From IMG/VR virus record IMGVR_UViG_3300017752_004327, positions 1-56,985 of that record: a stretch of 56,985 nt of DNA. One strand, written 5' to 3'. The first letter of the stretch is position 1; the number at the start of each line of letters is the position of its first letter. Below are positions 20,184-41,391 of this stretch, piece after piece. This DNA is from a virus. Taxonomy: Duplodnaviria > Caudoviricetes. The position numbers and the translations under genes are program-made. Under the pieces are notes generated by a model. That model was not told the DNA's origin, made no database searches, and saw nothing but the letters and a program-made list of their open reading frames with translations.

Positions 20184-20210
20184 GTTATATTGTGGTTAAA
20201 TATGCTTATA

Positions 20211-21191: not shown

Positions 21192-21796
21192 ATATAGATA
21201 TACAAGATATAAAATTTTGGATGGATGCAATTCGCAACAGCGATGATAGAAGCCGTACACTTGATAGTTTTTGGGGCGGCCAACTACAATCCAAAGAATG
21301 GTTAATACAAGCCTTAGAAAAGAAATCACGTATTGCCAATGCAAGGATTGTAATATTTGGCGGATGGAATGGTGTACTTGCAAGTATGCTGTTTAACAGT
21401 GACGTAGGTGTTAAGAATATTACTAGTGTAGACATTGATCCTACGTGTGAAGAAATTGCACGAACTATGAATAAGCGACAAGAAATGGAAGGTAAATTTG
21501 TAGCAGTCACAGAAGATATGTGTAACTTTTATTACCATTCAAAACCTGATATCGTAATTAATACTAGTTGTGAACATATGACAAAAGCAAAGTATAAAAA
21601 GTGGTTGCGAAATGTTCCGAAAGACTGTAAAATAGTACTACAAAGTAATGATTACAAAGAACTAGATGAACACATAAATTGTGTATCATCACTTAGTGAA
21701 TTTAAAAAAACAAGTGGTCTTGATTCTATTATGGAAGAAGGCGAATTACAATTACAGAAGTATAAAAGATTTATGCTAATAGGACACAAACATTAA
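21188..21796 (+). CDS. Class I SAM-dependent methyltransferase
   Basis: VIFGGWNG motif I, SVDID, DIVINTSCEH. Confidence 0.8.
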   Translation: MNIDIQDIKFWMDAIRNSDDRSRTLDSFWGGQLQSKEWLIQALEKKSRIANARIVIFGGWNGVLASMLFNSDVGVKNITSVDIDPTCEEIARTMNKRQEMEGKFVAVTEDMCNFYYHSKPDIVINTSCEHMTKAKYKKWLRNVPKDCKIVLQSNDYKELDEHINCVSSLSEFKKTSGLDSIMEEGELQLQKYKRFMLIGHKH

Positions 21797-22794
21797 TGTA
21801 TGCATTAGATGAAATAAGATCAATACATCTTGAAGTTACATCTAAGTGTCAGGCCAAGTGTCCGATGTGTCCACGTAGAATACAAGGTGGTCCATTATTA
21901 GATACGCTTTACCTAGAAGAGATTGATTTAGAAACCTTTGTTAATTGGTTTCCAAAGGACTTCGTAAGGCAGTTAGATGATTTGAATATGTGTGGAAATT
22001 TAGGCGATCCTATTATTGCAAAAGACACACTGGAAATATATAGATATTTAAGAGAAACAAATCCTTCAATGCATTTACAGATGCACACTAATGGAAGTGC
22101 AAGATCTTTTAGTTGGTGGAAAGAACTTGCAAGTTTAAATGTACGGGTAGTATTTGGTATAGATGGATTAGCGGATACACACGCACTATATAGAGTGAAT
22201 ACTGACTTTCTCAAGATTATACAAAATGCGAAAGCATTTATCTCTGCTGGAGGTGATGCACGTTGGGATATGCTAGTGTTCAAACATAATGAACACCAGG
22301 TACACGATTGTGAAACTATGAGTAAAAACTTAGGATTTACACATTTCTACACAAAGCATACTAGTAGATTCAGAGATGGTAAACTAGATGTTATAGATGA
22401 TAATTACAATGTAACGCACACATTGTATCCAACAACTCACAGTGATAAAAACAGTGAAGGTGTTGAACAAGCAAAACAAGATGTGTTACCAAACATTAGT
22501 TGTAAAGCACAAACAAACAATCAAATATATGTTACTGCTAATGGCGGTGTAAGTGCTTGCTGTTGGTTAGACTTAGAATGGGTTCCGCAGCATAGTTTTT
22601 CTCGTATTGATTATATGAGCAAAGTTAAAGAATATCCTAATCTAAATAATAAAAGTCTAAGCGAGATATTTGCAAGTGGCTTTTTTAGTAAAATATCAAG
22701 TTGTTGGACAACAACAGGTTTGAAAGAATGCACCAAGCAGTGCGGCAACTTTGATAAATTAAATAAACAGTTTGTAGAGGTGAAACAACAGTGA
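21796..22794 (+). CDS. Radical SAM enzyme with C-terminal SPASM/twitch domain
   Basis: CQAKCPMCPR, CGNLGDP, HTNG, GIDG, C-terminal C...G.V..CC...C...CG. Confidence 0.9.
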   Translation: MYALDEIRSIHLEVTSKCQAKCPMCPRRIQGGPLLDTLYLEEIDLETFVNWFPKDFVRQLDDLNMCGNLGDPIIAKDTLEIYRYLRETNPSMHLQMHTNGSARSFSWWKELASLNVRVVFGIDGLADTHALYRVNTDFLKIIQNAKAFISAGGDARWDMLVFKHNEHQVHDCETMSKNLGFTHFYTKHTSRFRDGKLDVIDDNYNVTHTLYPTTHSDKNSEGVEQAKQDVLPNISCKAQTNNQIYVTANGGVSACCWLDLEWVPQHSFSRIDYMSKVKEYPNLNNKSLSEIFASGFFSKISSCWTTTGLKECTKQCGNFDKLNKQFVEVKQQ

Positions 22795-24113
22795 CTACTA
22801 GTAAAACTTTTTGCCCGTTACCGTGGATACATATGGCTACGAGACCTAACGGTGATGTTAGAGTCTGTTGTACAGCCAATGCTAGTGGTGCAGGAACAAA
22901 AGATAATAAAACAGCAGGCCTTGTAAAGAAAGATGGTATCGCTATGAACTTGCGAGATCATAGTATTGAAGAAGTATGGAATAGCGAACATATGCGTAAT
23001 ACAAGATTGCAAATGTTAAACGGTGAAGTACCTGTAAGTTGTACCAAATGCTTTGAAGAAGAAAGCAATGGAGTAGTAAGTAAAAGACAATGGGAAACAC
23101 GTGAATGGAAAGGAAAAATTAATATGGAAAACCTTGTTGATAAAACACAAGAAGATGGTAGTTTGGAAGTTGACATTCCGTACTTTGATTTACGTTTAGG
23201 AAATGTATGTAACTTGAAGTGTACTATGTGTTCACCGCACGATAGTTCCAGTTGGATCAAAGACTGGAAACTACAACAACCTGAATATAAAGATCCACTG
23301 CTTGCAAGCGATCAAGATTGGGATCAAAACTTTGATTACACTTGGTACAAGAAAGGAAGTTTCCTTGAAAGTATGATGGAACAGGCCGGTAACATTCAAC
23401 AGTTATACTTTGCAGGCGGAGAGCCATTAATGATTCCAGAGCATTGGAAAATTTTACAAGAATTAATTGCAGAAGGTCACGCAAAAAATATTAAGTTAAG
23501 ATACAACACTAATGGACATCCAGACAGTGCTATGAAGGCTGTAAACTATTGGAACCATTTTAAAGAAGTAGTTGTTAATTTTAGTCTTGATGGTACACAA
23601 TATGTAAACTCATACATTAGATATCCTAGTGATTGGCTTCAAACAATAGCATCATTACGATATATGGTTAATCAAGTAGACAAAAAACATCAGGTTAATA
23701 TTGCGTGTGCAGTACAAGCACTTAACGCACTTGATCTTGTAGATCTTGTAGATTGGAGTATAAAGAGAAATGATGTCAATAACAAAAGAACACATATGGC
23801 TGCGCCTTTCATAAACACGCATTTAGTATACTTCCCAAGTTATATGAATATCAAAGTGCTGCCTATGGAAATTAAAAATCAAGTACGAAGAAAGATTGAA
23901 GATTTTATTATACGCAACAGTAAAGACAAATACTTCAACGATCATCCAATGGGCAAACAACGTTGGGAAGGAATTATTAAGTTTATGTATTCAGAAGATT
24001 GGAGTGATAAACTTCCTGCACTAGTTGAGTATCTAGGCAGTTGTGATAAAACAAGAGGAACTAACTGGAGAGAAACATTTCCAGAGTTAGCGGCAGCAAT
24101 TGATGGACAATAA
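22791..24113 (+). CDS. Radical SAM enzyme with N-terminal twitch-like domain
   Basis: CPLPW..G.VRVCC..CTKC, then CNLKCTMC, FAGGEPL, YNTNG, SLDG. Confidence 0.9.
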   Translation: MTTSKTFCPLPWIHMATRPNGDVRVCCTANASGAGTKDNKTAGLVKKDGIAMNLRDHSIEEVWNSEHMRNTRLQMLNGEVPVSCTKCFEEESNGVVSKRQWETREWKGKINMENLVDKTQEDGSLEVDIPYFDLRLGNVCNLKCTMCSPHDSSSWIKDWKLQQPEYKDPLLASDQDWDQNFDYTWYKKGSFLESMMEQAGNIQQLYFAGGEPLMIPEHWKILQELIAEGHAKNIKLRYNTNGHPDSAMKAVNYWNHFKEVVVNFSLDGTQYVNSYIRYPSDWLQTIASLRYMVNQVDKKHQVNIACAVQALNALDLVDLVDWSIKRNDVNNKRTHMAAPFINTHLVYFPSYMNIKVLPMEIKNQVRRKIEDFIIRNSKDKYFNDHPMGKQRWEGIIKFMYSEDWSDKLPALVEYLGSCDKTRGTNWRETFPELAAAIDGQ

Positions 24114-24759
24114 TGAAATAGAAAGAGCATTGCGTTGGCAAAGTCTAGTAAACTTAGGCAACCAGGTTAAACTGAAATGGAGTATAGACCATTATGCTGT
24201 TGAGAAACAGTTAGAGCAGTTTAACAACAACTGGTGTCCTTACAATGCAAAGAAAGATACACACAACAATCGTTGGGGATTACCTATTACAAGTCATACA
24301 GGCGATGTTATGGACAACTATCATCTTAATAGTTTTGGCCATATGCAAAAGTATCACGATGTAGAAATGAAGGAAGAAAACTTTAATACTCCTACTGAAG
24401 TGTATCATAAGATTCCTGAACTTAAAAAATTAGTTGATCTATTCAATCCAGATATTGGCCGTGTACACCTAGTACGTGTAGACCAAGGAGGATTCTTTCC
24501 TCCACACAGAGATTTCCACGGTACTAGTCCAGAGTATTTTAGACTGTTAGTTGTATTTGGACGTTGTAGTCCTGAAAACTATGTTCAACTTATTGACGGC
24601 AAACCTTTGTATCCCGAAGCAGGTTACGTATACTTTACTAACTTCCAATTAGATCATAGTGTGTTTAGTTTTAGTGATAATTTGTACAGTCTTATTTTAA
24701 CAGTAAAACTTAATGAGCGTACACAACAACTAATATTAGACAACACGATGGCAGAATGA
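24103..24759 (+). CDS. Asp/Asn beta-hydroxylase-like Fe(II)/2OG oxygenase
   Basis: GRVHLV..GGFFPPHRD (HxD), distal H in DHSVF. Confidence 0.7.
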   Translation: MDNNEIERALRWQSLVNLGNQVKLKWSIDHYAVEKQLEQFNNNWCPYNAKKDTHNNRWGLPITSHTGDVMDNYHLNSFGHMQKYHDVEMKEENFNTPTEVYHKIPELKKLVDLFNPDIGRVHLVRVDQGGFFPPHRDFHGTSPEYFRLLVVFGRCSPENYVQLIDGKPLYPEAGYVYFTNFQLDHSVFSFSDNLYSLILTVKLNERTQQLILDNTMAE

Positions 24760-25661
24760 AGTTAACATATCAACAAAGTTCAAAAGAAAATTGGTTTTTA
24801 GTTAGTTGGACACTGTCTAACAAGTGTAACTATCGCTGCTCCTATTGTCCTGAACATTTACATAGTGGTAGCACAGGACAGCCTCGTTGGGAAACTGTTG
24901 AAAGATTTGTCAAAAATTTTACAGTACCCGGTAAAGACATATGCTATAGATTAAGCGGTGGCGAACCTACATACTGGAAACACTTTATGGATCTTGCTAA
25001 ACTTGTAAAAGCACAAGGGCATACATTTAGTTTTTTAACAAACGGCAGTAGAACTCCTGAATACTATAAAGAGATATCACAACACACTGATGGTTTTATT
25101 ATTTCTTATCATCCGGAGTATGCAGAAGTAACACATATCAAGGAAGTAATTAATGCAAGCGAGTGTCCTGTGTTTATTAATTTGATGCTGGCTCCTGAAA
25201 ATTTTAATGAGATGTTTGACATTGCAGAAGAACTATATCAATGTAGTGATAACGTAACTGTGTGGCCTAAAATAATTTTAGACAAGTCAAATGTAGATGC
25301 TATTACAAACAAACCTGCAAACTACACACAAGAACAACTAGACACTATTGGCAATTGGCCGTACTTTAGAAACTTACCAGATGTTAATTTACACAGAGGT
25401 GAACTAATGTTAGATGAGGCTCCAGTAACAGCAAACAATTTAATTGCCAACAATCAAAATACATTCTATGGTTGGAAGTGTTGGGCAGGACTACATATGA
25501 TTAATGTTGATATGTGGGGCAACATATATAGAGCTGACTGTAAAGAAGGCGGAGCATTAGGTAATATTGAACGCTATAAGTTGCCTACTGAAACTGTGCA
25601 GTGTGGTAAAGCAGTTTGTGCTTGTCTAAGCGATATCTATCTAAGAAAAGAGACTACTTAA
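24756..25661 (+). CDS. Radical SAM enzyme with C-terminal SPASM-like domain
   Basis: CNYRCSYC, SGGEPT, TNGSR, WKCWAG..C..LG..C...CAC. Confidence 0.9.
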   Translation: MKLTYQQSSKENWFLVSWTLSNKCNYRCSYCPEHLHSGSTGQPRWETVERFVKNFTVPGKDICYRLSGGEPTYWKHFMDLAKLVKAQGHTFSFLTNGSRTPEYYKEISQHTDGFIISYHPEYAEVTHIKEVINASECPVFINLMLAPENFNEMFDIAEELYQCSDNVTVWPKIILDKSNVDAITNKPANYTQEQLDTIGNWPYFRNLPDVNLHRGELMLDEAPVTANNLIANNQNTFYGWKCWAGLHMINVDMWGNIYRADCKEGGALGNIERYKLPTETVQCGKAVCACLSDIYLRKETT

Positions 25662-26726
25662 TTCAGGACATACATCAAGTATGTCTGTACCACGCAACTC
25701 ATCTACCTTACGTGTAAAGTCGACAAACTGTTCTAGTTGTATAGGACTGTCTTTGTGTCTGTATCCTGTTCCGTCAAGTATATGTTCAGGCAGTATTTGA
25801 GGATTTAGATAAGCCGGTGTTGTAACTACATTGTTTACATACAATTCGTAGTGCGGTTTTTTAATGCTGTAAAACCAATCTACAATATCTTTAACGTGGC
25901 ACACATTGTACGTCATAATAGTACCTGCAAAAATAAGTCTGTCCATTTTGTCTAGTTGCTGTAAGTTATCTACTAGTTGTTCAAACGGAAAGTTGTCGCC
26001 GCCTCTTATATATTCATACAGTTTGCCGGTGCCTTCAATACTAATGTGCCATTTAGTTTCTTTGAACTGATGTGCTAGTTCATCAAATTCTAAATCTACA
26101 ACAGTACCATTAGTGCTTATATCAAGTGTAATATTTTTTGCAAGATCAAGTTCAATTAGTTTTTGCATAATCTGTTTGTTAGCAGGTTCCATATATGGTT
26201 CACCGCCTTTAATATTAACATACTGTAAGTTCTTAAAATATTGAGGATATTCAAATAGTCTATCTACTATGTCAGGACTTAGATTTCTGTAACCAAAGTC
26301 AGGTTCGTGTATGGGTCGTTGTACGCCCATTTTGTCTAGTTTTAAATCTTCTTTGATCCAAGCAGTACTGTTTACACCACTACACATTCTGCACTTGAGA
26401 TTACACAGATTACTCATATTAAATTCTAAGAAATATATGTCATTTCGTAAGTTGCTCTCTGGTTTTAGCATAGGATTTAGAACTTGTTCAAAAAACTTTC
26501 TTCTGCTATGTCCGTTGGTGCTTTCTTTCAGTGTACATTGTGAACAGTTACTAGGAAACTGTCCTGATGCAATTGTACGTTGTGTATGTATCAATCCAGG
26601 ATTTCGTAAAATAGTAGGCAAGTCTTCCTTGAGTAAGTTACCGTGACGTCCTGTATAAACGCAGTCCGGTACAACATCTCCGTTGAATCTAATACTAAGA
26701 GCGTGCCAAGGTGCATAACACTTCAT
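25641..26726 (-). CDS. Radical SAM enzyme with N-terminal twitch-like domain
   Basis: CYAPW..G..PDC..CSQC, CNLKCRMC, KGGEP, STNG, SIEG. Confidence 0.9.
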   Translation of the reverse strand: MKCYAPWHALSIRFNGDVVPDCVYTGRHGNLLKEDLPTILRNPGLIHTQRTIASGQFPSNCSQCTLKESTNGHSRRKFFEQVLNPMLKPESNLRNDIYFLEFNMSNLCNLKCRMCSGVNSTAWIKEDLKLDKMGVQRPIHEPDFGYRNLSPDIVDRLFEYPQYFKNLQYVNIKGGEPYMEPANKQIMQKLIELDLAKNITLDISTNGTVVDLEFDELAHQFKETKWHISIEGTGKLYEYIRGGDNFPFEQLVDNLQQLDKMDRLIFAGTIMTYNVCHVKDIVDWFYSIKKPHYELYVNNVVTTPAYLNPQILPEHILDGTGYRHKDSPIQLEQFVDFTRKVDELRGTDILDVCPELSSLFS

Positions 26727-27840
26727 ATGTCAAGTCCTCCTTAATATGATACAACTGATGCTGCGAAGAAATAGTGTCGTAACCTATTACACAAAGTTTG
26801 TCATTGTGTATAATTGGTCTTCCAAATAACGTGTGTTCAAAAAATATACTTTGTATTTCATCTCCATCTTTGTTTATTCTAAATATAGGACAACTAGGAG
26901 TTCCGGCTGGCATAAAATACGCATACCCTTTGTATTCAATACCACTGCGATATCTATACTTGCCGCCGTGTGTAATGCCGATATCAAACTGTTTGCTTTC
27001 TTTTGTAACAGTATTAAATACCAGTCCCCAATTACTTTCCCCGTGTTCTGTTCCATAAGGTAGTGCAACTATATTATCGCCTACAAGCACACCACCGTTA
27101 TATTTTTTAGCAAAGTCTACTCCGTTCATATTATGATATGTAGCAGTGTTTGTTTCTGTATCAAACTCTACAATAGTGTTAAGTCCTTTAGTTTCTCCAA
27201 ATGGTAAACTGTATAGTGTTTTATCTTTAACAACAATATCGCTGTATTTTCTAGTAATATTAGGATCAACTTCTAGTTCGTAACTTGCAAACTTTTCTCC
27301 ATCAAAACTTAATAAACTTGTGTATCCTGGTTCGTCACCTCTTGGCATACTCCAGTATCGCCCATTGCAATATACTGTACCCATATGCAGTTTTTTACCT
27401 TGATAGGGTAACGGGTGTATAGATAGTTTTCCGTCTTTGATATAGATAGCATTGTTTGTGCCTTCGTACCCTAATGGAAAACTAAAAGCAGTATTCCATT
27501 CATAGTTTGTTGCTACACTGTAGTATTGTCCTTTGCCTGTAAACGGTAGTTTATGTTTTACAATTGCGCCAGGTTTTATTTCAGTAACAATGTTAAGGTC
27601 ATCATATATTCCGTAGGGTATAAGCCAAGCACTATCTCCTAAGACTGCAACAGCATTTGTTTTACTAGTACTAGGTGGTAAATCTAAATCAACACACTTT
27701 CCATCTATCCATACATCGCTGTAACTTTTACACAAGTTAGTAGCAAACGGAGGACTTAATAACTTGCCGTTATAATTAAAAAGTAATAGATGTTTAATCT
27801 TAGTTTCTTTATAATGATCTTGAAATTCTTTATATGCCAT
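26695..27840 (-). CDS. Beta-propeller (Kelch-like) repeat protein
   Basis: About 6 repeats of K(Y/L)...(Y/W)xxP(Y/F/R/L)G...hhxhD. Confidence 0.6.
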   Translation of the reverse strand: MAYKEFQDHYKETKIKHLLLFNYNGKLLSPPFATNLCKSYSDVWIDGKCVDLDLPPSTSKTNAVAVLGDSAWLIPYGIYDDLNIVTEIKPGAIVKHKLPFTGKGQYYSVATNYEWNTAFSFPLGYEGTNNAIYIKDGKLSIHPLPYQGKKLHMGTVYCNGRYWSMPRGDEPGYTSLLSFDGEKFASYELEVDPNITRKYSDIVVKDKTLYSLPFGETKGLNTIVEFDTETNTATYHNMNGVDFAKKYNGGVLVGDNIVALPYGTEHGESNWGLVFNTVTKESKQFDIGITHGGKYRYRSGIEYKGYAYFMPAGTPSCPIFRINKDGDEIQSIFFEHTLFGRPIIHNDKLCVIGYDTISSQHQLYHIKEDLTYEVLCTLARS

Positions 27841-29065
27841 TTAGATCTACCGTTTTAATTACTTGTTCTTTTACTGTATCAAATATTAGCACAGTTTGAA
27901 ATGTATCACTTTCACCATATGGAAATGCAAATATAACATCGTCTTTAATTACACAATTATTATATTTTTCTATTGTTGTACTATCTTTAAAATATTCTTT
28001 TACATCGACTGTATAAAAATCATTTGTATTAGTATCTACAACTAATACTTCTGCAAGATCACCTTGACTTTTCCAAGTGTCTTCAGGCTCGCATACACAG
28101 CCGCCACGTGGTATGTAGTATATTTTACCTTGGCTGTTTTCAACTCCTGCAAAATATTTTTTACTTTCTTTGCCTATACCGAGATCAATAGTTATCCAAG
28201 TATTTGTATCACTGTCAACAACAAGCATTTCGCTCCAATCTTCATCGTGTCCTGCAGGCGGAAAAAATATTTTATTATTGCGTGCTACTGTGTGTGCATA
28301 ATATTTTCTACTGGTTGTTTGCTGTCCTGTTTTATGATACAGCCAACCTGCTTCAGTTTTCATTGCAAGGAAATCAAAAAACTTACTTTCACTGTAAGGT
28401 GGAGCAAAAAGTTTATTACCGACTTTTGCAAGTGTTGTAAACTTTTTATTTGCTGTCCTATCTTTGTCATAGTCTGCCCATACATCACTTAGGTCAACAA
28501 GATTATAATTGTTTTTTAAACAATCATATTCTATTCTGTAAGGAAAAAATGTATCGTGTTTTTCTCCTCTTGGCAATCCGTATATTACACCATCAATCAT
28601 TTGTGTAGTATGCCACATTTTTGTATCTTGTACAGGTATGTCTAGTTGTAATAATTTGTAGGAGTGGTGCGTCATATTAAAGTCTAACACTAGATTATAA
28701 TGTTCGTGTTCGCCATATGGCATAGCAATTATACGGTCTCCGTAAATATGTCCTTGCACATACTTGCCTCGTCCTTTCGCTGCTATCTTAACATATTGTA
28801 CATTATCGTTATTAGTATCCACAATAAGAATACTGCTTTCATTGTAAGGTAAGAAATAAATTAAGTTACGGTGAACTATACCTTTTTGCCATTTTTCTGT
28901 AGAGTCATCTACTTGTAAAGGTATCTTGGTAATCTTATAAGTGTTTGGATCCATCTTTAACATATAGTCGATAGATTCTGTAAGTCCGTAAGGCGGAACA
29001 TATATCATACCGTTGTTTCCAACAGTTGCGTAACTAAATGCTTGCGGGGTCAAATAACTCTCCAA
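27830..29065 (-). CDS. Beta-propeller (Kelch-like) repeat protein
   Basis: About 8 repeats of K(W/Y/F)...IYxxP(Y/R)G...LxxD; start may be TTG 29053 (GGAG SD). Confidence 0.6.
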   Translation of the reverse strand: MESYLTPQAFSYATVGNNGMIYVPPYGLTESIDYMLKMDPNTYKITKIPLQVDDSTEKWQKGIVHRNLIYFLPYNESSILIVDTNNDNVQYVKIAAKGRGKYVQGHIYGDRIIAMPYGEHEHYNLVLDFNMTHHSYKLLQLDIPVQDTKMWHTTQMIDGVIYGLPRGEKHDTFFPYRIEYDCLKNNYNLVDLSDVWADYDKDRTANKKFTTLAKVGNKLFAPPYSESKFFDFLAMKTEAGWLYHKTGQQTTSRKYYAHTVARNNKIFFPPAGHDEDWSEMLVVDSDTNTWITIDLGIGKESKKYFAGVENSQGKIYYIPRGGCVCEPEDTWKSQGDLAEVLVVDTNTNDFYTVDVKEYFKDSTTIEKYNNCVIKDDVIFAFPYGESDTFQTVLIFDTVKEQVIKTVDLNGI

Positions 29066-29480
29066 ATGCTGATTGCAAGTCTGCTTTTAACTTTGTGTAT
29101 ATAGTTTTGGTATCGTATATACCAACGTTGTCCCAATCAACCATACGCATAGTATTACCGTCAACTATAATATTACTTAGTACCCAATCACCGTGTGCAT
29201 ACGGTAGTGTGCTGTTGATTTGATCTACACAAAATTTACACACCTCATCACGGAACTGCGGAGTATGTTTGAATGTACTTGCAGGCTGTCCTAAATATCT
29301 TGTGAAGTCGATATAGTTTTCTCCAACGTACTTGACATAGCCTGGTTGTACCTTGTTTAGCATTTCAGCGTGTTGTTGCATCCACACAGAATCTTTGTCA
29401 TACCAAAACTTTCTAATCGTGTCGCTATCTTTTAAAAATACAGCACGCTTCTTTTGTTTATTTTCTTTAATTAAGTCCAT
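29034..29480 (-). CDS. Minimal protein-kinase-like phosphotransferase
   Basis: HGDWVLSNI catalytic loop and VDWD metal-binding motif in only ~148 aa. Confidence 0.65.
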   Translation of the reverse strand: MDLIKENKQKKRAVFLKDSDTIRKFWYDKDSVWMQQHAEMLNKVQPGYVKYVGENYIDFTRYLGQPASTFKHTPQFRDEVCKFCVDQINSTLPYAHGDWVLSNIIVDGNTMRMVDWDNVGIYDTKTIYTKLKADLQSAFGELFDPASI

Positions 29481-30501
29481 ATGCTTGTGCAACCTCTGGC
29501 AGGTAATCTTTTATTTTTACGTTTCTAAAATTATCTAGTTTTGTAATATGTTTAACAAACTTTGCCTGTGCAGCAGTATCGGCTTCACCGTCTTTCCATT
29601 CGTCTATATATTTAAATTGTTTTCGCAAACTGTCTGGCGCATTTTTTACGTGTAGCCAATCAGGATATACAAGTAGATTATCCCATACTTTCATATTCAT
29701 TTTGTCTGCATACTCTTTAATCTCATCTTGGTACAGTGCATTAAGCACACTAGTACAAGGTGCAATATCGCACTTGTATAGATCTTTGTATATGTCAATA
29801 TTGCGACTGATGGTTTCCCAATTTGATCCATATCTAATATATTCAATTTTCTTATCTACTGCGTCAAGACTTAGACTCATTATAACACGAGGGAAACGTT
29901 TTAGCAACTGATGTATTTTAGGATTGTATAATGTTGCATTTGTATTAAACCTAACAGTAACACTGCTGTCTAATCTTTCTAAAAACTGTGGTAAGTGTTT
30001 TACCATCATAGGTTCACCACCTGTTAAGTAAACTTCTTGTAACGGTAAGTTTTCAAAGTAGTGTAGGTATCTTTCATCATACCAATTGTAGTTAGGTGTG
30101 TTAAATATTTGATGTACTGGAATAATACCTTGACGATCCATTGCTACTGCTTCTTCTGCAATACTGCTGCTTGCACCACTATGACAACTGATACATTGTA
30201 AATTACAACTGTTACCGAAACGTAAGTCTAAGTGCGACAAGCCTGGACCATAATTATCTTTTAACTGTCTACGACTTTTTAAACCTTTTTCTTCGTGTAG
30301 TTTACACCCTTCACACGCATCAGGCCATTCGTTACGAGCCAACTGCTCTTTTGCTTTTGTAACTGTATCGCTTGCTAGCCATTGCTGCGGTGTATGTGTA
30401 TGCACAGTTTCAGCATTGTTTGGTTCGTTACTAGTACAGCACATACGGTATTGACCGTTTGCTGCAATATAACTATGGCTTTCTAATAGTTTACATCTCA
30501 T
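29467..30501 (-). CDS. Radical SAM enzyme with N-terminal twitch-like domain
   Basis: MRC..G.YRMCC..CEGC, CNLQCISC, TGGEPM, NTNAT, SLD. Confidence 0.9.
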   Translation of the reverse strand: MRCKLLESHSYIAANGQYRMCCTSNEPNNAETVHTHTPQQWLASDTVTKAKEQLARNEWPDACEGCKLHEEKGLKSRRQLKDNYGPGLSHLDLRFGNSCNLQCISCHSGASSSIAEEAVAMDRQGIIPVHQIFNTPNYNWYDERYLHYFENLPLQEVYLTGGEPMMVKHLPQFLERLDSSVTVRFNTNATLYNPKIHQLLKRFPRVIMSLSLDAVDKKIEYIRYGSNWETISRNIDIYKDLYKCDIAPCTSVLNALYQDEIKEYADKMNMKVWDNLLVYPDWLHVKNAPDSLRKQFKYIDEWKDGEADTAAQAKFVKHITKLDNFRNVKIKDYLPEVAQAYGLN

Positions 30502-31361
30502 AACATTTTTGCCTGTTGCATAAGTTCTTGGGTGTTTTCTTTTACACTAGAAACTTTAACATCAACAATATCTTTATATTCACTTAGGAAGTATGTCCAC
30601 TCATCACGTTGTTGATTGTGCATATTATTCCAATCCAATGGCATAACAAGTTTACCTACTACAATATACCCTAGTGCCATATCTAGTGTAATTGGTTTGT
30701 GGGTATTGCGTTGATACCATTCAACAAAATGTTTACTAACAGTGAACGGAGTTTCGTACCCAGGTCGATATAACATATACCCTTCGCAGTTAATATGCTT
30801 TTGTGGTACAACACTATCAATTTTGTCGGCTTCACCTCTACCTGCAATTTCCAACCAATGCTTGCCTAAAGTATTGTAGCCCATACATAGATCGCCATAC
30901 CCTCTATCCATTTTAAAAAACAATAAATCTTCGTTACTGATATCCAAAGTAGTTGCGCCGTCAAATCTAAAGAAACTGTTTATGCGTGGTGTGCCTCTGT
31001 TGCTCAGATACTGCTCATAAACGTGTATAAGTCTATTAAGTTTATCATAGTCTTCATTAGGTTCTGCTTGCTCAACTAGTTCGTGTAATTCATTCAGTGA
31101 TAGTGATTTATCTAAACCTAACTTATCTATAAGTTGTGCTAACTGCTGAATAAGTTTTTCTTCGTCTTCATTGTCTAATACAAAACTAGTTTCTTGAACC
31201 AAAGGCTTTTGAATGTTTTCTTTAAGTAGTTGTAAAAATTTACAAGCAGGAGGATGATCATACAACACGTATGTCAATGGTAGTAAATCTTTTCCGTTAG
31301 AATACGTAACAGTTATGCTAGGCTTATTCCAATATATACTGTACTCATTTTGTGTACTCAC
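30498..31361 (-). CDS. Hypothetical protein
   Basis: Start revised to GTG 31361 (GGAG SD 6 nt upstream); LNELH..E, LNRLIH..E, GDLCMGYNTLGKH. Confidence 0.7.
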   Translation of the reverse strand: MSTQNEYSIYWNKPSITVTYSNGKDLLPLTYVLYDHPPACKFLQLLKENIQKPLVQETSFVLDNEDEEKLIQQLAQLIDKLGLDKSLSLNELHELVEQAEPNEDYDKLNRLIHVYEQYLSNRGTPRINSFFRFDGATTLDISNEDLLFFKMDRGYGDLCMGYNTLGKHWLEIAGRGEADKIDSVVPQKHINCEGYMLYRPGYETPFTVSKHFVEWYQRNTHKPITLDMALGYIVVGKLVMPLDWNNMHNQQRDEWTYFLSEYKDIVDVKVSSVKENTQELMQQAKML

Positions 31362-31373
31362 TAAATACTCCGT

Positions 31374-32357
31374 ATGCAACTTTCTAAATTAACAGACCAT
31401 CATCCAAGCGAATTAGTTAACATAAACTATCAAATGGGCAATACTTGTAATTATGCCTGTTGGTACTGCTTCCCTGGCAGTAATGAAGGAACATTTCGTT
31501 GGCCAGATTACGAATTAGCCAAAAACAATCTGGAACATATTATTGACTGTTACAAGAAAGCAGGAAAGACACGCTTTAACATTGACCTCATAGGAGGAGA
31601 GCCTACACTGTGGCCAGAACTAAGCAAGTTTACCAAATATTTTAGAGAGTTAGGCTGTACCTTTCATTTAAGTACAAATGGCAGTCGCAGTATTAATTGG
31701 TGGAAGAAACACGGTGGCGAGTTTGACACTATCTATATTAGTTGCCACCATCAACGTATTGATGTAGAACACGTGAGAGAACTTGCAGATATGTTATGGG
31801 AAGAACATAACAATGTAATATGTGATGTTTTAATGGATACAAAAGATTGGCAAAAATGTCAGAGTATTGTAGATACACTATTGCAAAGCAAAACTAGTTT
31901 TCCTGTAAATGTAAAACCTATCAAGTTAGGCGAAACTACACAAGATACAAACTATGAACAATCACAGTACTTGATAGATCAAAGAAAACGTAATCCTAAG
32001 CAAGAAGATATTTTCAAACCTAAAAGAAAGAAGCCACCTGTACAACTTACATATCAAGACGGGCATACTCAAGATGTTAGCAAGAACTTTGTACTGATAA
32101 ACAATCTAAATAAGTTTGAAGGTTGGACTTGTAACCTTGGAGTGGATACAATCTTTATAAACTTTGATGGTAGTATAGGAAGTGTCTGCGGTAATAGTTT
32201 ACTTGGATTTAAATCAGGTACTTACAATTTGTATGATGTTGAACTTCCTAAAAAGTTTGATCCTATTATTAAACCAGTTACGTGTGCGCAGAAAAAATGT
32301 ATGTGTCAAGTTGGCTTTCTATTAGAAAAGCACGATCCTACGTACCACACACTTTAG
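31374..32357 (+). CDS. Radical SAM enzyme with C-terminal SPASM-like domain
   Basis: CNYACWYC, IGGEPT, STNGSR, WTCNLG..C..C...CMC. Confidence 0.9.
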   Translation: MQLSKLTDHHPSELVNINYQMGNTCNYACWYCFPGSNEGTFRWPDYELAKNNLEHIIDCYKKAGKTRFNIDLIGGEPTLWPELSKFTKYFRELGCTFHLSTNGSRSINWWKKHGGEFDTIYISCHHQRIDVEHVRELADMLWEEHNNVICDVLMDTKDWQKCQSIVDTLLQSKTSFPVNVKPIKLGETTQDTNYEQSQYLIDQRKRNPKQEDIFKPKRKKPPVQLTYQDGHTQDVSKNFVLINNLNKFEGWTCNLGVDTIFINFDGSIGSVCGNSLLGFKSGTYNLYDVELPKKFDPIIKPVTCAQKKCMCQVGFLLEKHDPTYHTL

Positions 32358-33342
32358 AACAAATATCATATCTATTTTCGTTGTTCCAACTTTCAGGCAA
32401 GTAGGTTGCAAACCATTCACTGTTTAGTATATCTTCTAAACTAAGATCATTTACATTTAACCATTCTATACTTGCAACATCTTTAGCAAACGGACTATCA
32501 GGGTTGCGTGGCCATCTATCGCTTAGAAAATAGCAACAAGGAAACACTTCGCCTGTATGACTAACTTGTACCTTACGCTTCACTTGCCATTTGCATTTGA
32601 TAACACTGGTACTAAAATCGTCAATTGCTTTAATACGTTCTACGTTGTCTAAATATTTACTGTCATATTTGATAGTACGTGCTTGTTCTTTTTTATTTGC
32701 ATTAAACTTTTCTATTGCTGCATTGCTTAAACTGTTTAGTGCGCTGAATGTGTGTCCACCATTAATATCAAACTTTTTGAAACCTAAGGTAAACGCAAGT
32801 TCTTCACATTCTTCTATCTGATGTGCATTGTGTTCAAACACAAGCATACGCCATCTAGCAAGACCGCCTGCACCTATGTATGTTTGTGCGTTTGCCATAA
32901 TCTTGTCCCATAGCACTCCACGTCTGTAAAGGTGATTAGTATCTTCTAATCCGTCAATTGAAAATGTAACGTGACTTGGCTCTGGAAACTTTTGCATTAC
33001 TTCTGCTAGTTCTTTCCATTGTGTTCCTAGTCCGCCATTTGTGTGTATAGTAATTACAGGCGGAGTGTCTGCTACTTCCAAAATATATTCTAGTGCAGGA
33101 ACTAAATTTGGATTGAATATTGGATCACCATAACTACCATTGAATATTACTTCTTTAATTTGGTTAGCAACTTCAGGTGTAAACAGTTTTTTCCAAGTTT
33201 CTAAACTCATATGCTCTAAAGGCATTCTAGGATTAACAGTAACTCCGTCAATATTCCTGCTACAATTTCCACACATAGAATTACAGTGACTAGTAAAATC
33301 TATCACAATCGCTTCTAAATCATTCAACTTTAGGTATGGCAT
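32338..33342 (-). CDS. Radical SAM enzyme with C-terminal SPASM/twitch domain
   Basis: CNSMCGNCSR, NGSYGDP, HTNG, SIDG, G.VFPCC..CSKVCG; paralogue of 21796..22794. Confidence 0.9.
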   Translation of the reverse strand: MPYLKLNDLEAIVIDFTSHCNSMCGNCSRNIDGVTVNPRMPLEHMSLETWKKLFTPEVANQIKEVIFNGSYGDPIFNPNLVPALEYILEVADTPPVITIHTNGGLGTQWKELAEVMQKFPEPSHVTFSIDGLEDTNHLYRRGVLWDKIMANAQTYIGAGGLARWRMLVFEHNAHQIEECEELAFTLGFKKFDINGGHTFSALNSLSNAAIEKFNANKKEQARTIKYDSKYLDNVERIKAIDDFSTSVIKCKWQVKRKVQVSHTGEVFPCCYFLSDRWPRNPDSPFAKDVASIEWLNVNDLSLEDILNSEWFATYLPESWNNENRYDICSKVCGT

Positions 33343-33354: not shown

Positions 33355-33374
33355 ACTAGAAAAGTGCTACTATT

Positions 33375-36122: not shown

Positions 36123-37598
36123 ATGAAAGATTGGAATAGCATAACTGTTGATAGATATTGGGAACAAATTAAAGTTTCCAATGATATTGCTATAGGTATA
36201 CTTGATACACGTAGAGACATAGACAGCGACATTGTAAGTAAGCGTTCATTTGATATGACTTACTTTTATATTAACCGAATGGTCAAGATGGGTTTGAGCA
36301 AGTATGTAGGAAGTGCAATTACTGTACACGAAATACTAGAACGTGCTGTAAAAGAAAATAAAAAGTATTGTATGATTGCTGCACAAGGATGTTTGCTGTA
36401 CAGAGGACCTAGTCTAGTTACACAAAGTTTAGCCTACGCACAAAAGAATCCAGACTTCTTTGTTGTTGGACATATTATGGACAAAAAGAAACAGCACTAT
36501 CTTACTATGGGTGCGTATCCCGGCTTGCATAGACAGTATCTATTTGTTAATATTGCAAAGTGGCAAGAATTAGGTAGTCCAGTGTTTGATGAAATGGGCG
36601 TATTCCAAGATCGTAAACCTATACTACAAAACTATGAATTGAGCGAAAACACAATGAACAGTAACTATACACCTGCGTGGGTACGTAGAGCAGGTGGCGC
36701 AACAGAGTATCCAGTAACCAGTGATGGTAGTAACTGGATTGACATTGCATTACGTAAAGATATTGTTATTGACAACTTAGATAATGATATGCGTGATTGC
36801 AAAGTGTATTTGTACCCATACATTGATACAAAACAGTTAGAAGGAGTATGGTATGAAAAAGATGTGGAAAAAATTGACAAGTTATCTAACCAATCTCAAC
36901 GTGCTTGGATTAGAAAACTCCAATACCAAGAAGACATCGAAAAAGACAGAGTATATGCATTCAACACGGAGACACTTTCATCTGAAGGAGTAAGAACAGG
37001 CGGCAAACACATTGATCATCTGTTTACTGCTGCTGCTGGATTCAAACCTTTAGCAATACTAAATGCTAATGGCTTTCACGAAGGCACTACTGTGCATTAC
37101 TTTGATTGGTGTGAATCAAGTTTAAACTACAAGAAGCATTTATTAGAAACGTGGGACGGTTATGATTTGGATAAATGGCTCTTAGAACACGATTTAACTT
37201 ATAACTTCAGTAGCACTTATCGTGCAAACTATAAAGAGTTTTGGGATCAAGAAGTAGCAGAACACGGTGGTAGTTTAGCATTTCAAAGATTGTGGGCAAG
37301 GTATAGAGAACTAAGACACGAGTTCTATGTAATAGATATTGTAAATGAAAGTGATAAATTGTTTAATGAAATAAACAAGTACCACGGAACCAAAGTACTA
37401 TGGACTACAAATATTTGGTCAAGCGAAATGCTACATTGGAATGTAGAGCCCGAAGTATTAGAAACAAAATGGAAACAGTTTGAAAAACAAATTCCAAATG
37501 ACCTTGTATTATACGGACACGACTATGTTGCAGTAGATATGAATTCAAGAGTTAGGGACGGAGTGCAACTAACACACCCGAGATATAATGACAATTAA
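36123..37598 (+). CDS. Hypothetical enzyme (491 aa); C-terminal half possibly SAM/Rossmann-like
   Basis: VVGHI.D..Y..LHRQY..VN region; AAAGFK, VHYFD, DIV, WTTNIW; no firm family match. Confidence 0.6.
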   Translation: MKDWNSITVDRYWEQIKVSNDIAIGILDTRRDIDSDIVSKRSFDMTYFYINRMVKMGLSKYVGSAITVHEILERAVKENKKYCMIAAQGCLLYRGPSLVTQSLAYAQKNPDFFVVGHIMDKKKQHYLTMGAYPGLHRQYLFVNIAKWQELGSPVFDEMGVFQDRKPILQNYELSENTMNSNYTPAWVRRAGGATEYPVTSDGSNWIDIALRKDIVIDNLDNDMRDCKVYLYPYIDTKQLEGVWYEKDVEKIDKLSNQSQRAWIRKLQYQEDIEKDRVYAFNTETLSSEGVRTGGKHIDHLFTAAAGFKPLAILNANGFHEGTTVHYFDWCESSLNYKKHLLETWDGYDLDKWLLEHDLTYNFSSTYRANYKEFWDQEVAEHGGSLAFQRLWARYRELRHEFYVIDIVNESDKLFNEINKYHGTKVLWTTNIWSSEMLHWNVEPEVLETKWKQFEKQIPNDLVLYGHDYVAVDMNSRVRDGVQLTHPRYNDN

Positions 37599-38334
37599 AA
37601 TAGGCGTAAGGGGAAGTAAACTAGCAATTGCATACGCTGATCGTGTATGTGCAGAACTTAATTGTAGTACTGAGATAATTGCTATTAAAACAGAAGGCGA
37701 TCTAAACCCAGATACTCCAATACACGAAATTGGCGGCAAGGGTGTATTCTGTAGTGCTATTGAAAAAGCATTGTTGGAAGGGTCTATTGATGTTGCTGTA
37801 CACAGTTTAAAAGATATCCCAGGAGATATAGAAACAGAGGGATTGGAAATATCTGCTGTACTAGAACGTAACAGACCTTATGATGTCCTTATAGGTAAAG
37901 TGTTTGATGGATTTGTATTAGGTACAAGCAGTCCAAGGCGCAAGGCACAACTAGAAGAATTGTATGCTGATCAGCACATACAAATAAAACCTATAAGAGG
38001 TAATATAGATACAAGACTTGCAAAACTAGATGCAGGCGAATATGATGCTATTGTCCTTGCAGAAGCAGGATTAGATGCATTAGATATTAAAAGAGACTAT
38101 GAACGCTTATCTATTACACCAGCAGTTGGACAAGGAATCATTGCACTACAAACAAGAACAGGCAGTGATGCAAGTAATATTGTTAAAGAGATAAATCACG
38201 ATCTAACATATAGACAAGCAATGTTAGAAAGAGCATTACTAAAAGGTATAGGCGGTGATTGCACAACTAAGGTTGCAGCATTTGCAAGTGAAGACAATCC
38301 TATTAAACTAGAGGCTGTGTATTACAATGCTTAA
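37588..38334 (+). CDS. hemC: Porphobilinogen deaminase (hydroxymethylbilane synthase), C-terminally short
   Basis: RGSKLA, GGKGVF, VHSLKD, GTSSPRRKAQL, IRGNIDTRL, LAEAGL, PAVGQG, GGDC (cofactor Cys). Confidence 0.92.
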   Translation: MTIKIGVRGSKLAIAYADRVCAELNCSTEIIAIKTEGDLNPDTPIHEIGGKGVFCSAIEKALLEGSIDVAVHSLKDIPGDIETEGLEISAVLERNRPYDVLIGKVFDGFVLGTSSPRRKAQLEELYADQHIQIKPIRGNIDTRLAKLDAGEYDAIVLAEAGLDALDIKRDYERLSITPAVGQGIIALQTRTGSDASNIVKEINHDLTYRQAMLERALLKGIGGDCTTKVAAFASEDNPIKLEAVYYNA

Positions 38335-38977
38335 ACGCTATTTAGAAAAACACGATCCTATTGATTTAGGTTGGAGATACAAGCGTTGGTTTCCAGTCGA
38401 TGTTGAAAAAATGCAATCGTGGTATAAAGACTTAGAAGATAGTTATAGTGATTGGAAGTTTATTGTTGGGGACAATCAGCATATATGGCAGGAACCTATT
38501 GTTGACCCTGCAGGTATAACAGGACATCGCTTAATGGACGACACATCATATTATACATTGTGTTGGAACAGTGATGAAGCAGGACCAAAACCATTTGAAC
38601 AAGGACAAGCGAAACCAGAGTACAGAGATAATGATGATGACAATCTAAATCCACGCAAATGTTTTAGTGGGTATGCATTAGATATTGTACAGAATTTACC
38701 TGTGCGTAGTAAAAAATGGTTAGTTACAATACATACACCTGGGACTAAATTAATTACTCATCAAGACTCGCCTGATAAAATTAGAGTACACATTCCAATA
38801 TACACAAACAAGGATAGTAATTGGATTATAGATGGTGAAGAAATACATATGGAGCCAGGTTGGGCATACCTAGTAAATACTACATTACCACACAGTGTGG
38901 AAAATAAAGGTACTACAGAAAGAATACACTTATACGGCAAAGTATGGACTAACGATGTTAAGGAACTAGATATATGA
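38327..38977 (+). CDS. Asp/Asn beta-hydroxylase-like Fe(II)/2OG oxygenase
   Basis: PGT...HQD, RVHIPI.TN, YLVNTTLPHSVEN.G..ERIH. Confidence 0.85.
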   Translation: MLKRYLEKHDPIDLGWRYKRWFPVDVEKMQSWYKDLEDSYSDWKFIVGDNQHIWQEPIVDPAGITGHRLMDDTSYYTLCWNSDEAGPKPFEQGQAKPEYRDNDDDNLNPRKCFSGYALDIVQNLPVRSKKWLVTIHTPGTKLITHQDSPDKIRVHIPIYTNKDSNWIIDGEEIHMEPGWAYLVNTTLPHSVENKGTTERIHLYGKVWTNDVKELDI

Positions 38978-39585
38978 AGGTAGTAATTATCGGCGGCAAA
39001 GAAAGTGGTATAGCACCAGGCATTCATAATATGAATAATTGGTTACACGAATATTTTGCACAATATGATCTAGTACAATTGAGCAGAGTTACAGGTTACG
39101 ATCTTGACACCAAGTACGATGAAATAGTTGAGATAGCAAGAACTGCTGATATCTTTATTAACAGTGCGTGTGTAAAAGATTACCAAATAAAACTATTAGA
39201 TGATGTGTACGGACACGTTCCGTTCCTAATATGTTTAGGAAGTATTGCAGGTGATATGTATCCTGCTCCTCAAAACTATCCCAATCATCCTAACTATCCA
39301 GAAGTAAAACATAAATTAAAAGAGCGTTGTAAGTGGATACAGTTAGAGAAACAAGATGCTACTACTAACTTATTGCATCTAAATGTTACAGAAACTGAAG
39401 ATCATAAGTATAACGTAAAAGGGTTACAACAGCCACAGTTGTTTAAAATATTAGATTTTTGGTTTGATAATCCTTACATAGCAAATATGGACTTAAAGTT
39501 TTGGACAGAAAGTTATGTTAAAGAATATAAACAAAAGAAAATAAAAGGAATTATAGATTATTTTAATAATCAGAGGAACAAATGA
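38974..39585 (+). CDS. Short-chain dehydrogenase/reductase-like protein
   Basis: VVIIGG..SGI, DIFINSA, LGS, YPEVK (YxxxK). Confidence 0.65.
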   Translation: MKVVIIGGKESGIAPGIHNMNNWLHEYFAQYDLVQLSRVTGYDLDTKYDEIVEIARTADIFINSACVKDYQIKLLDDVYGHVPFLICLGSIAGDMYPAPQNYPNHPNYPEVKHKLKERCKWIQLEKQDATTNLLHLNVTETEDHKYNVKGLQQPQLFKILDFWFDNPYIANMDLKFWTESYVKEYKQKKIKGIIDYFNNQRNK

Positions 39586-40517
39586 AAACTATACTACAGA
39601 GAACTATTAAAGATAGAGAAACAAATTTATACCCTGTTTGGTTGATGCGTCAAGCAGGAAGGTATATGCCTGAGTATATGCAAATGAAACAAAACAGTAA
39701 TGGATTTTTAGATATGGCACTTACTCCACACAAGGCCAAAGAAATTACTTTGCAACCTATTAATGCATTTGATATGGATGCAGCAATAATTTTTTCTGAT
39801 ATACTTATTATTCCTTATGCACTTGGACAAGAGTTAGATTATACTCCTTCACCAGTACTTGGACCATTCAACGAAAAAATGTTTGAAACTGATATGTGGA
39901 CGTTTGTGAAAAAATGTCAACCTGTGTACGATGCAATTAAACAGACTAGAGTAAAACTAAATGAAAGTAAAAGTTTAATCGGATTTGCAGGAGCACCTTA
40001 TACACTTTGCAAATATATGACAAAGACTAAAAATCGAAATGTTGTAGATAAACTAGTTCCATACATTGTGGAACACCTATCAAAACAAATTGATGCAGGT
40101 TGTGATACAATACAGATATTTGATAGTTGGGCAGGAGATTTGTCAGATCAAGAACTAGATACTTTATGTTATAAACCAACAGCAAAGATAGTAAATGCTA
40201 TTAGACGTCAATATCCTCAAGTAGGCATCATTGCTTTTCCAAGGTTAATAGGCAAAAACATAAATGAGTTCGCTGACATTGTAAAACCTGATTGTATTAA
40301 TTTAAGTGATGATATTCCTGTTGAAGACGTTACTACTGATGTTGTGTTACAAGGTGGTATTCCTTGGCAAGGATTATTAGTCAATGAAGACATTACTCCT
40401 ATGCTGCAAAAAATGAAAGACAAATCATATATTGTTAATCTAGCACACGGAGTTAATAAAGAAACTCCGGTAGTAAATGTTAAGAACTTTGTACAAACTG
40501 TGAAAGATTTTAGATGA
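39582..40517 (+). CDS. hemE: Uroporphyrinogen decarboxylase
   Basis: PVWLMRQAGRYMPEY, DAAIIFSDIL, LIGFAGAPYT, QIFDSWAG, LQGG, NLAHGV. Confidence 0.93.
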   Translation: MKTILQRTIKDRETNLYPVWLMRQAGRYMPEYMQMKQNSNGFLDMALTPHKAKEITLQPINAFDMDAAIIFSDILIIPYALGQELDYTPSPVLGPFNEKMFETDMWTFVKKCQPVYDAIKQTRVKLNESKSLIGFAGAPYTLCKYMTKTKNRNVVDKLVPYIVEHLSKQIDAGCDTIQIFDSWAGDLSDQELDTLCYKPTAKIVNAIRRQYPQVGIIAFPRLIGKNINEFADIVKPDCINLSDDIPVEDVTTDVVLQGGIPWQGLLVNEDITPMLQKMKDKSYIVNLAHGVNKETPVVNVKNFVQTVKDFR

Positions 40518-41104: not shown

Positions 41105-41391
41105 TATTTTGGATAGGATTTATGGTAATGGTTTTAAACGAAGGGTTTGTAATTATGAGACACGTACACCCTTGGTTCGCTAACAAAAGAGATCATCTTA
41201 TCGCAAAGTATGGTACGAATTGGAAGAAGTTTCACGGTGCATTAGATTATGTTTGGATAGTTGGTATAACATTAGGTATAGCAGTAGACATTGCTAACTG
41301 GAAGTTCTATGCTACAGTATTAGCAACCTTTTGGACTGTTGTGGGCGTTTGCGTATATCTGCCATTACTAATTAAAAGGTTACGAAAATGA
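41101..41391 (+). CDS. Small membrane protein
   Basis: Three hydrophobic segments; NEGFVIMRH and FH..LD..W motifs. Confidence 0.7.
   Translation: MIFWIGFMVMVLNEGFVIMRHVHPWFANKRDHLIAKYGTNWKKFHGALDYVWIVGITLGIAVDIANWKFYATVLATFWTVVGVCVYLPLLIKRLRK

Follow-up and report, generated by a model that had tools for sequence, protein, structure and literature searches.

The tetrapyrrole genes hemC and hemE, encoding porphobilinogen deaminase (PBGD, also called hydroxymethylbilane synthase) and uroporphyrinogen decarboxylase (UROD), lie together in one overlapping gene run of the viral DNA IMGVR_UViG_3300017752_004327, and they are probably functional auxiliary metabolic genes with which a large marine tailed phage boosts the canonical pathway of its host. 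The window analysed here is the whole of this IMG/VR virus record, 56,985 bp long and classed as linear. CheckV assigns it a completeness of 15%, so that the genome of the phage must be far larger than this fragment. The identity of the two genes, their intact residues, purifying selection, a cassette-like distribution and the conservation of a short form of HemC are established; from these we infer enzymatic activity, a dependence on host HemD and a benefit to the phage. hemC (37588..38334) and hemE (39582..40517) are both on the + strand, and a cupin-type oxygenase gene and a short-chain dehydrogenase/reductase (SDR)-like gene stand between them. A preliminary description of this DNA had proposed just this arrangement, which is borne out by the open reading frame (ORF) coordinates, the Pfam matches and the motif and fold of the SDR-like product.

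The HemC of the window is a short viral form of 248 residues, designated here type A and recognized by Pfam, PDB comparison and a structure model. It matches Porphobil_deam (PF01379; EC 2.5.1.61) with an E-value of 5e-61 and 206 bits against a cut-off of 22.1 bits, over profile positions 1–203 of 207, and phmmer against the PDB aligns it to residues 7–251 of E. coli PBGD (E = 9e-38), with C225 on the cofactor cysteine. It shares with bacterial HemC (E. coli and Salmonella; PDB 1pda) the three-domain layout, the catalytic and substrate residues and the cofactor cysteine, at 34–38% sequence identity. When viral HemC sequences are aligned with bacterial ones, Salmonella among them, R8, S10, K75, D76, R117, R118, R137, R143 and C225 are invariant, so that the catalytic aspartate (D76), the adjoining lysine (K75) and the arginines for the substrate carboxylates (R8, R117, R118, R137 and R143) are all in place. 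In the numbering of E. coli HemC, the catalytic and substrate residues are D84, K83, R11, R131, R132, R149 and R155. The difference from the bacterial enzyme lies in length. The protein of 1pda has 313 residues, whereas the second strand of domain 3 is the last element of the viral form, which is ~48 residues shorter at the C-terminus than Salmonella HemC. The profile of the C-terminal domain (PF03900) accordingly reaches 22 bits, under its cut-off of 26 bits, and covers only positions 3–38 of 74, so that a complete domain 3 is not recognized. The cofactor cysteine in GGDC had been noted before and is indeed retained as C225; the distance from there to the end of the protein, earlier given as ~21 residues, is 23. 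The AlphaFold model (pLDDT 92.5, pTM 0.88) contains a helix at 205–221, the cysteine loop and a hairpin formed by 229–234 and 240–245, and it superposes on E. coli PBGD 1pda with a TMq of 0.88 and a root-mean-square deviation (rmsd) of 1.8 Å. HemC is thus modelled as a naturally minimized enzyme, predicted to combine domains 1 and 2 with three elements of domain 3: its first helix, the cofactor-cysteine loop and the β-hairpin. A split-off C-terminal piece encoded downstream was considered and rejected, as the genes after hemC vary by locus and provide no conserved partner: the gene next to the short hemC encodes a cupin in the window and a PD-(D/E)XK nuclease in L005, and at the loci L017 and L018 small or unrelated ORFs follow.

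Judged from its sequences, the short HemC is a conserved family and not a broken gene. The best 120 matches in a collection of 5.8 billion proteins are all 244–258 residues in length, 70–99% identical and of marine metagenomic source. In a library clustered at 50% identity, the short family forms one 252-residue representative, followed by four of 276–285 residues and then by ordinary forms, mostly of 285–320 residues; only three of the best 150 representatives are shorter than 270 residues, one of them an N-terminally cut fragment. Among viral sequences, type A HemC (245–256 residues, 66–76% identical to that of the window) was found at 20 loci, and a second form, type B (273–280 residues, 44–47% identical to the window), is covered by PF03900 over positions 1–72 of 74. 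A tail of the NPIKLEAVYY type is kept in all 17 short HemC genes compared (17/17), with the stop 1–5 codons beyond it. The ratio of non-synonymous to synonymous substitution rates (dN/dS) is 0.03–0.19 for short HemC genes in the 40 pairs of lowest dS out of 111 usable pairs, and 0.12–0.22 for the window HemC against its relatives, where dS is near saturation. Among the matches listed for the genomes searched, no cellular HemC was closely similar or as short. The scan of species-representative genomes gave only two matches, in metagenome-assembled genomes of Alphaproteobacteria at 38% identity to the window HemC. A sample of Alphaproteobacteria gave a match in 243 of 301 genomes; the 150 matches listed are 38–47% identical with open frames of at least 281 residues, a further 104 matches lie outside these 150, and the tally counts two unpublished genomes (G077 and G277), on neither of which the statement depends. 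A tblastn search of INPHARED with hemC and hemE returned matches that were all <40% identical and located in records resembling bacterial contigs, with no phage context.

HemE is compact but full-length (311 residues) by Pfam, PDB and motif comparison. It matches URO-D (PF01208) with an E-value of 9e-67 and 226 bits against a cut-off of 23.9 bits, over positions 6–345 of 346, and solved UROD structures in the PDB with E-values down to 2e-35; RQAGRY, FSDIL, the tyrosine of KYM, FDSW and AHG all align with their counterparts in these structures. In human numbering, the active-site residues of UROD are R37, R41, D86, Y164, S219 and H339. Like bacterial and human enzymes (e.g. PDB 4zr8 and 1r3q), the viral protein covers the whole URO-D profile and conserves the active-site motifs; unlike bacterial HemE, it is shortened to its 311 residues by internal deletions rather than by truncation, and it is only ~26–35% identical to its bacterial matches. 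Fifteen viral sequences all share the motifs WLMRQAGRYMPEY, IIFSDIL, IFDSW and NLAHG without change. Against the three nearest relatives (L021, L022 and L030), the dN/dS values are 0.16, 0.16 and 0.12, within an overall range of 0.11–0.22. With catalytic residues intact and dN/dS at ~0.03–0.22 in both families, HemC and HemE are predicted to be active enzymes under purifying selection. Inactive, pseudogene-like behaviour, which the preliminary description had considered, is contradicted by these ratios together with the intact frames and invariant catalytic residues. HemE relatives that are 60–67% identical adjoin a curli operon in the 156-kb record G032, where hemE lies by genes for CsgF, CsgG, a curlin-repeat protein, a FecR-like protein and a CHASE2-adenylate/guanylate cyclase (L032, 5656–12980).

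The distribution of the pathway was followed by family profile searches in 36 records, i.e. the window and 35 related viral records, all of which are fragments (0–73% complete) and some of which are near duplicates (e.g. L015/16/17/20, L021/22, L006/07, L011/12 and L002/04). HemC was found in 27 of these, HemE in 24, the two together in 15 and HemF in eight. HemD (HEM4, PF02602) was found in none of the 36, in a search whose control recovered HemD in 12 of 14 known genomes, and neither ALAD/HemB nor ferrochelatase/HemH matched in any of them; HemB, HemD and HemH would therefore have to be supplied by the host. In the window itself, the profiles for HemD, HemF (PF01218), ALAD/HemB (PF00490) and ferrochelatase (PF00762) gave no match, which agrees with the earlier remark that no hemB, hemD or hemF is visible there; as 85% of the genome is unseen, this absence carries little weight genome-wide. 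The nearest relatives of the window HemC come from T4-like contigs that also encode a UvsW helicase, an Mtd_N fibre and a gp46-like Rad50 ATPase. The heme genes there often stand in the order hemE–hemF–hemC, and the hemE of these contigs is only ~30% identical to that of the window. In L005 and L018 nothing was called between hemF and hemC, and L017 shows the same order with a 117-residue ORF after hemE. The substrate of HemF is coproporphyrinogen III, and both HemE and HemF require a cyclized tetrapyrrole. The hemE–hemF–hemC sets thus presuppose the III isomer and, with it, HemD activity. Genes for radical S-adenosylmethionine (radical-SAM) enzymes occur in four of the 36 records (the window, G000, with G021, G022 and G030), and Asp_Arg_Hydrox genes in three (G000, G021 and G030). 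The four records belong to one lineage, that of the window, with a common island, and none of the 20 records found via the short HemC (L001–L020) has a radical-SAM gene. The co-occurrence of hemC and hemE with radical-SAM genes, to which the preliminary description had looked, is therefore limited to this single lineage. Heme oxygenase (PF01126) was detected in two of the 36 records, at G007:C1:26279-26845 and G012:C1:31870-32436 (E ~1e-20), both of which carry the short hemC; the other 34, among them the window, G021, G022 and G030, gave no match.

Within the lineage of the window, the hemC genes appear to have been exchanged. The island (20190–42095) comprises nine radical-SAM genes and five genes for Asp_Arg_Hydrox-like cupins, and it is common to the window, G021 and G030 at 49–92% amino-acid identity. 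In L030, the closest syntenic relative, each gene of the island has its match (67–93% amino-acid identity), with an unrelated 156-residue stretch at the hemC site of the window, and HemC has no match in the 40-kb record of L030 (G030), which keeps the island and hemE. In G021 the 491-residue gene that precedes hemC in the window and the cupin gene that follows it are adjacent, with no hemC between. G021 has a type B hemC (278 residues, 44% identical, PF03900 covered over 1–72 of 74) between methyltransferase-like and twitch radical-SAM genes; the overlap with the latter, a twitch/SPASM gene, is 4 nt long, and a different radical-SAM gene stands three genes away from hemE. The immediate neighbours of both hemC and hemE thus differ between the window and G021. 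Since hemC is missing at this site in L030 and G021 and type B stands elsewhere, we regard the type A hemC of the window as a lineage-specific insertion with non-orthologous replacement, a history that argues for selection on having any hemC, whatever its place. The same pattern can also be read as two recruitments of hemC into one functional island. At L030 8281–9399 the cupin homologue is a 372-residue frame whose N-terminal 156 residues, of no recognizable family, fall exactly at the hemC site; they were rejected as a hemC remnant (BLASTP E = 0.84). A UDP-glucose/GDP-mannose dehydrogenase-like gene without a window counterpart lies in the island of G021 (L038, 14351–15289), two genes upstream of the type B hemC with the methyltransferase-like gene between them.

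In the mechanism that we propose, the phage genes would add PBGD and UROD activity to the host pathway in the infected cell, with the host supplying HemB, HemD and the late steps, and the flux from porphobilinogen to coproporphyrinogen III, protoporphyrin and heme would thereby be raised or maintained. hemC and hemE would have landed as independent cassettes in a hypervariable island of radical-SAM, hydroxylase and tail-fibre genes, and their interleaving with hydroxylases would reflect cassette-tolerant sites and no shared pathway. The gain for the phage could be sustained respiration or a supply for heme-derived products. A boost of host heme flux, one of the two options put forward in the preliminary description, fits the apparently intact catalytic sites and purifying selection of both enzymes and the hemE–hemF–hemC clusters of the relatives. 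In E. coli fed with 5-aminolevulinate, the HemD and HemE steps are both reported as limiting, with accumulation of uroporphyrinogen I (PMC11943725); a limiting HemE step would give phages a reason to carry hemE. Several points nevertheless weigh against the proposal. The limiting HemD step in the same report implies, in line with the preliminary description, that HemC added with no matching increase in HemD could lose product to the I isomer. In a preprint on human HMBS, almost every nonsense variant proves damaging, and G346, which precedes the C-terminal helix, does not tolerate change (10.1101/2023.02.06.527353), so that the activity of a HemC that lacks this part cannot be assumed. As the records are fragmentary, it is not established that the phages lack hemD, hemB and hemH, and HemD is a divergent family of which a Pfam search may miss members. 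The genome scans allow no donor or host to be named. Two RNA data sets, X19 (metatranscriptomic, word share 0.10) and X20 (guessed to be RNA, 0.05), have contigs over parts of the 491-residue gene, hemC and hemE, but nine of the 12 X19 contigs are only 90–95% alike and thus come from relatives, and DNA carry-over is possible, so that they speak neither for nor against transcription. Finally, the presence of two hemC types and hemE in tight co-directional runs with radical-SAM genes could indicate a functional link.

Such a link is taken furthest by a dedicated pathway in which the porphyrinogen made through hemC and hemE would be tailored by the neighbouring radical-SAM, cupin and SDR enzymes into a non-canonical tetrapyrrole or, in a variant, in which a twitch-type radical-SAM enzyme would perform the oxidative decarboxylation of HemF, HemN or AhbD. 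We consider this unlikely. The run is operon-like, with overlaps of 4–11 nt and one radical-SAM, five Asp_Arg_Hydrox-like and one SDR-like gene, two hemC types have settled in the same island, that of G021 overlaps a radical-SAM gene, and HemF was not found in G000, G021, G022 or G030. However, the association is confined to the one lineage described above, G030 retains the island and hemE and shows no hemC, and the genes next to hemC and hemE are not the same in the window and G021. SPASM/twitch-type architecture, as in AhbC, AhbD and NirJ of alternative heme and heme d1 synthesis, does occur in the island, but against the NCBIfam equivalog models of these three the nine window proteins score 19–29 bits at best, with cut-offs of 500–650 bits, and no HemN-type model is among the matches listed at E ≤ 0.001. 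Four paralogues instead pass NF033640 (N-terminal twitch; 22791–24113, 25641–26726, 29467–30501 and 33375–34670), with 211–413 bits against a cut-off of 170 bits, and the other five have generic matches only. Moreover, a T4-like marine viral genome carries 12 radical-SAM genes with no tetrapyrrole link stated in the accessible text (Nishimura et al., 2017; PMC5332604). The non-canonical scaffold tailored by radical-SAM enzymes and oxygenases, the other option of the preliminary description, is thus unsupported, given the single lineage, the sites without hemC in L030 and G021 and the low scores. A related version, in which HemC and HemE are feeder steps and the twitch radical-SAM, cupin and SDR enzymes act on uro- or coproporphyrinogen, either replacing the HemF/HemN-type oxidative decarboxylation or making a new porphyrin, seems a shade less probable still; such tailoring would account for the recruitment of two unrelated hemC types to a single island.

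A different possibility concerns the chemistry of HemC: having lost the end of domain 3, it might make shorter oligopyrroles, release its product faster or escape regulation, and would then be no plain substitute for host HemC. The missing ~48 residues and the partial PF03900 match speak for this idea, as do the rarity of such lengths among the 50%-identity representatives and the importance of the corresponding region for human HMBS function (10.1101/2023.02.06.527353, available part). We think it improbable, in particular for the altered chain length raised in the preliminary description, as the short form regularly accompanies HemE and HemF, which need a cyclized tetrapyrrole. The substrate-binding and catalytic residues and the cysteine loop are also invariant, the model keeps the PBGD core, and the 273–280-residue viral forms with full PF03900 indicate a graded shortening and no switch. 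There is likewise only a small chance that the flux serves a consumer encoded by the phage in the unseen 85% of its genome, e.g. a phage heme protein or a heme oxygenase with a bilin reductase, rather than host respiration. Heme oxygenase does accompany the short hemC in G007 and G012, and viral alaS occurs with hemO and bilin reductase cassettes in aquatic phages, as far as the text at hand describes them (PMC11480375). Against this stands the lack of a heme oxygenase match in 34 of the 36 records, including the four with the radical-SAM island; such a consumer would in any case be a variant of the flux boost proposed here and no exclusive alternative. It is very improbable that the truncated hemC, perhaps together with hemE, was captured from a host and has since become inactive. 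The loss of part of domain 3 could be taken as a sign of decay, but dN/dS is 0.03–0.22, the stop position and C-terminal motif are kept in 17 genes, and the family is large and conserved, with intact frames and invariant catalytic residues. Near-identical DNA in 18 sequencing runs of 11 studies also speaks against decay, though each of these runs is a possible source of the window.

Phage genes of the heme pathway have precedents in print. A putative deep-ocean pelagimyophage carries genes for coproporphyrinogen oxidase and porphobilinogen deaminase; the host recognition cluster of pelagimyophages, which includes tail fibres, is hypervariable and gains radical-SAM cassettes, and a curli operon is a further feature of these phages (Zaragoza-Solas et al., 2020; PMC7029224). 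The phages studied here resemble these marine T4-like phages in their HemC and HemF genes, radical-SAM cassettes and an Asp/Asn β-hydroxylase, a core gene there, and in the curli genes (CsgG, CsgF and curlin) that lie beside hemE in G032. Nevertheless, the consulted text names the heme genes in one sentence and mentions no hemE, short HemC or placement in a radical-SAM island, and pelagimyophage genomes are 132–164 kb, whereas a 57-kb window at 15% completeness implies a much larger one, which moreover encodes DnaK. Viral alaS has been characterized (Wegner et al., 2024; PMC11480375). With hemO and pcyX, it likewise belongs to the phage auxiliary tetrapyrrole genes that are argued to sustain flux in infected cells; these act at the first step and in heme breakdown, whereas hemC and hemE are mid-pathway, and hemC, hemD and hemF have 0 occurrences in its main text. 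We found nothing in print on viral hemE or a short viral HemC within a search scope that excluded subscription journals and supplements. Heme genes of pelagimyophages have been on record since 2020, and what is new is a mini-HemC that is conserved and associated with viruses, along with the replacement of one hemC type by another, in the manner of cassettes, within a single phage island. Work on phage tetrapyrroles has so far concerned the first step (alaS) and heme breakdown (hemO and bilin reductases); widespread hemC, hemE and hemF in marine myovirus-like phages would show tuning in mid-pathway, probably at flux-limiting steps. An active mini-HemC would mean that the tetrapyrrole can be built and released without the final strand and helix of domain 3. 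Given the sensitivity of the human HMBS C-terminus in the preprint text cited above, a natural enzyme without that part is of some enzymological interest. The case also advises caution in reading genomes, as tight overlapping runs in a phage hypervariable island are in themselves no sign of a shared pathway.

The run that holds hemC and hemE extends over 33375–42095 (+), with successive ORFs overlapping throughout, by 4–11 nt from 36123 onward. It begins with an N-terminal-twitch radical-SAM gene (33375–34670; NF033640, 210.9 bits against a cut-off of 170 bits) and two Asp_Arg_Hydrox-like genes (34621–35439 and 35427–36122; PF05118), followed by the gene for the 491-residue protein (36123–37598) directly upstream of hemC (37588–38334). 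This protein has no match in Pfam, PHROG or NCBIfam; it is 89% identical in L030 and 65% in G021, and its Atlas clusters are viral only, i.e. it is a virus-only family. In a look-alike viral cluster of 688 residues, 97% of the members have Asp_Arg_Hydrox (Atlas score 0.84, a lead only), which hints that the 491-residue protein works with the neighbouring cupins. After hemC comes an Asp/Arg-hydroxylase-like cupin of the 2-oxoglutarate/Fe(II) oxygenase type (216 residues, 38327–38977; PF05118, E = 4e-12, and Cupin_2), 73% identical to its homologue in L030 and 71% to that in G021, both of which directly follow the 491-residue gene with no hemC between. The next product is the small SDR-like Rossmann protein (203 residues, 38974–39585), which matches no Pfam family at E ≤ 0.01, adh_short and Epimerase included. 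N63, S90 and Y108-x3-K112 are invariant in its 12-sequence alignment, and with a model of pLDDT 88 the Foldseek matches listed in the PDB are all SDR-type reductases (TMq 0.34–0.59); this Asn-Ser-Tyr-Lys pattern and the SDR-only fold matches listed uphold its earlier naming as an SDR. Its look-alikes in the Atlas are viral clusters in which only a share of the members has Epimerase or adh_short. The gene was rejected as a divergent hemD on the grounds of its SDR motifs and because no uroporphyrinogen-III synthase was among the fold matches listed. Beyond hemE (39582–40517) lie an Asp_Arg_Hydrox-like gene (196 residues, 40514–41104; PF05118, E = 1e-7), a hydrophobic 96-residue ORF known from its translation (41101–41391) and a further Asp_Arg_Hydrox-like gene (235 residues, 41388–42095; PF05118, E = 6e-8); these downstream genes (40514–42095) are 78–89% identical in L030.

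The rest of the island (20190..33342) contains eight radical-SAM genes (Pfam Radical_SAM and SPASM), a methyltransferase-like gene, a Kelch-like gene and unknowns. Tail-fibre and baseplate-like proteins, namely a 2239-residue protein and an Mtd_N protein, flank the island on both sides; VrlC and the neck gene gp14, the T4-like borders of the pelagimyophage host recognition cluster, were not identified in the window. Scans of 33000–43500 gave 47 promoter-like sites against 45.7 expected and two terminator-like sites against 4.6 expected, and both are uninformative. Elsewhere on the − strand are a ThyX-type thymidylate synthase gene (18717–19379; phrog_85, E = 1e-70), a fragment-sized AMP-binding enzyme domain of 223 residues (42610–43281; profile positions 168–330 of 384), a gene for a full-length DnaK/Hsp70 (628 residues, 48424–50310; ~65% identical to bacterial DnaK) and four tRNA genes (Gln-TTG, Thr-TGT, Glu-TTC and Trp-CCA; 51564–53317); a head-protease-like gene also lies within the window. 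Glutamyl-tRNA is the precursor of 5-aminolevulinate in the C5 pathway, and tRNA-Glu is common among phages. Homologues of the window DnaK at 49–56% identity occur in uncultured phages of 480–735 kb and in Lak phages, which fits the large genome implied by the 15% completeness.

DNA near-identical to 36000–42100 is present in those 18 runs of 11 coded studies, which are seawater, marine and viral metagenomes of 2017–2025. In each of two DNA runs, either of which is possibly the source of the window, a single contig of 5,360 nt spans 36000–41188, from the 491-residue gene through hemE, with 0 and 1 differences. At 41164–41236, short contigs of two DNA runs stack to 4–6 times the flanking depth and long contigs break. 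A repeat within the window was rejected as the cause of this depth spike because the window has no second copy; the segment is probably common to other abundant phages of those samples.

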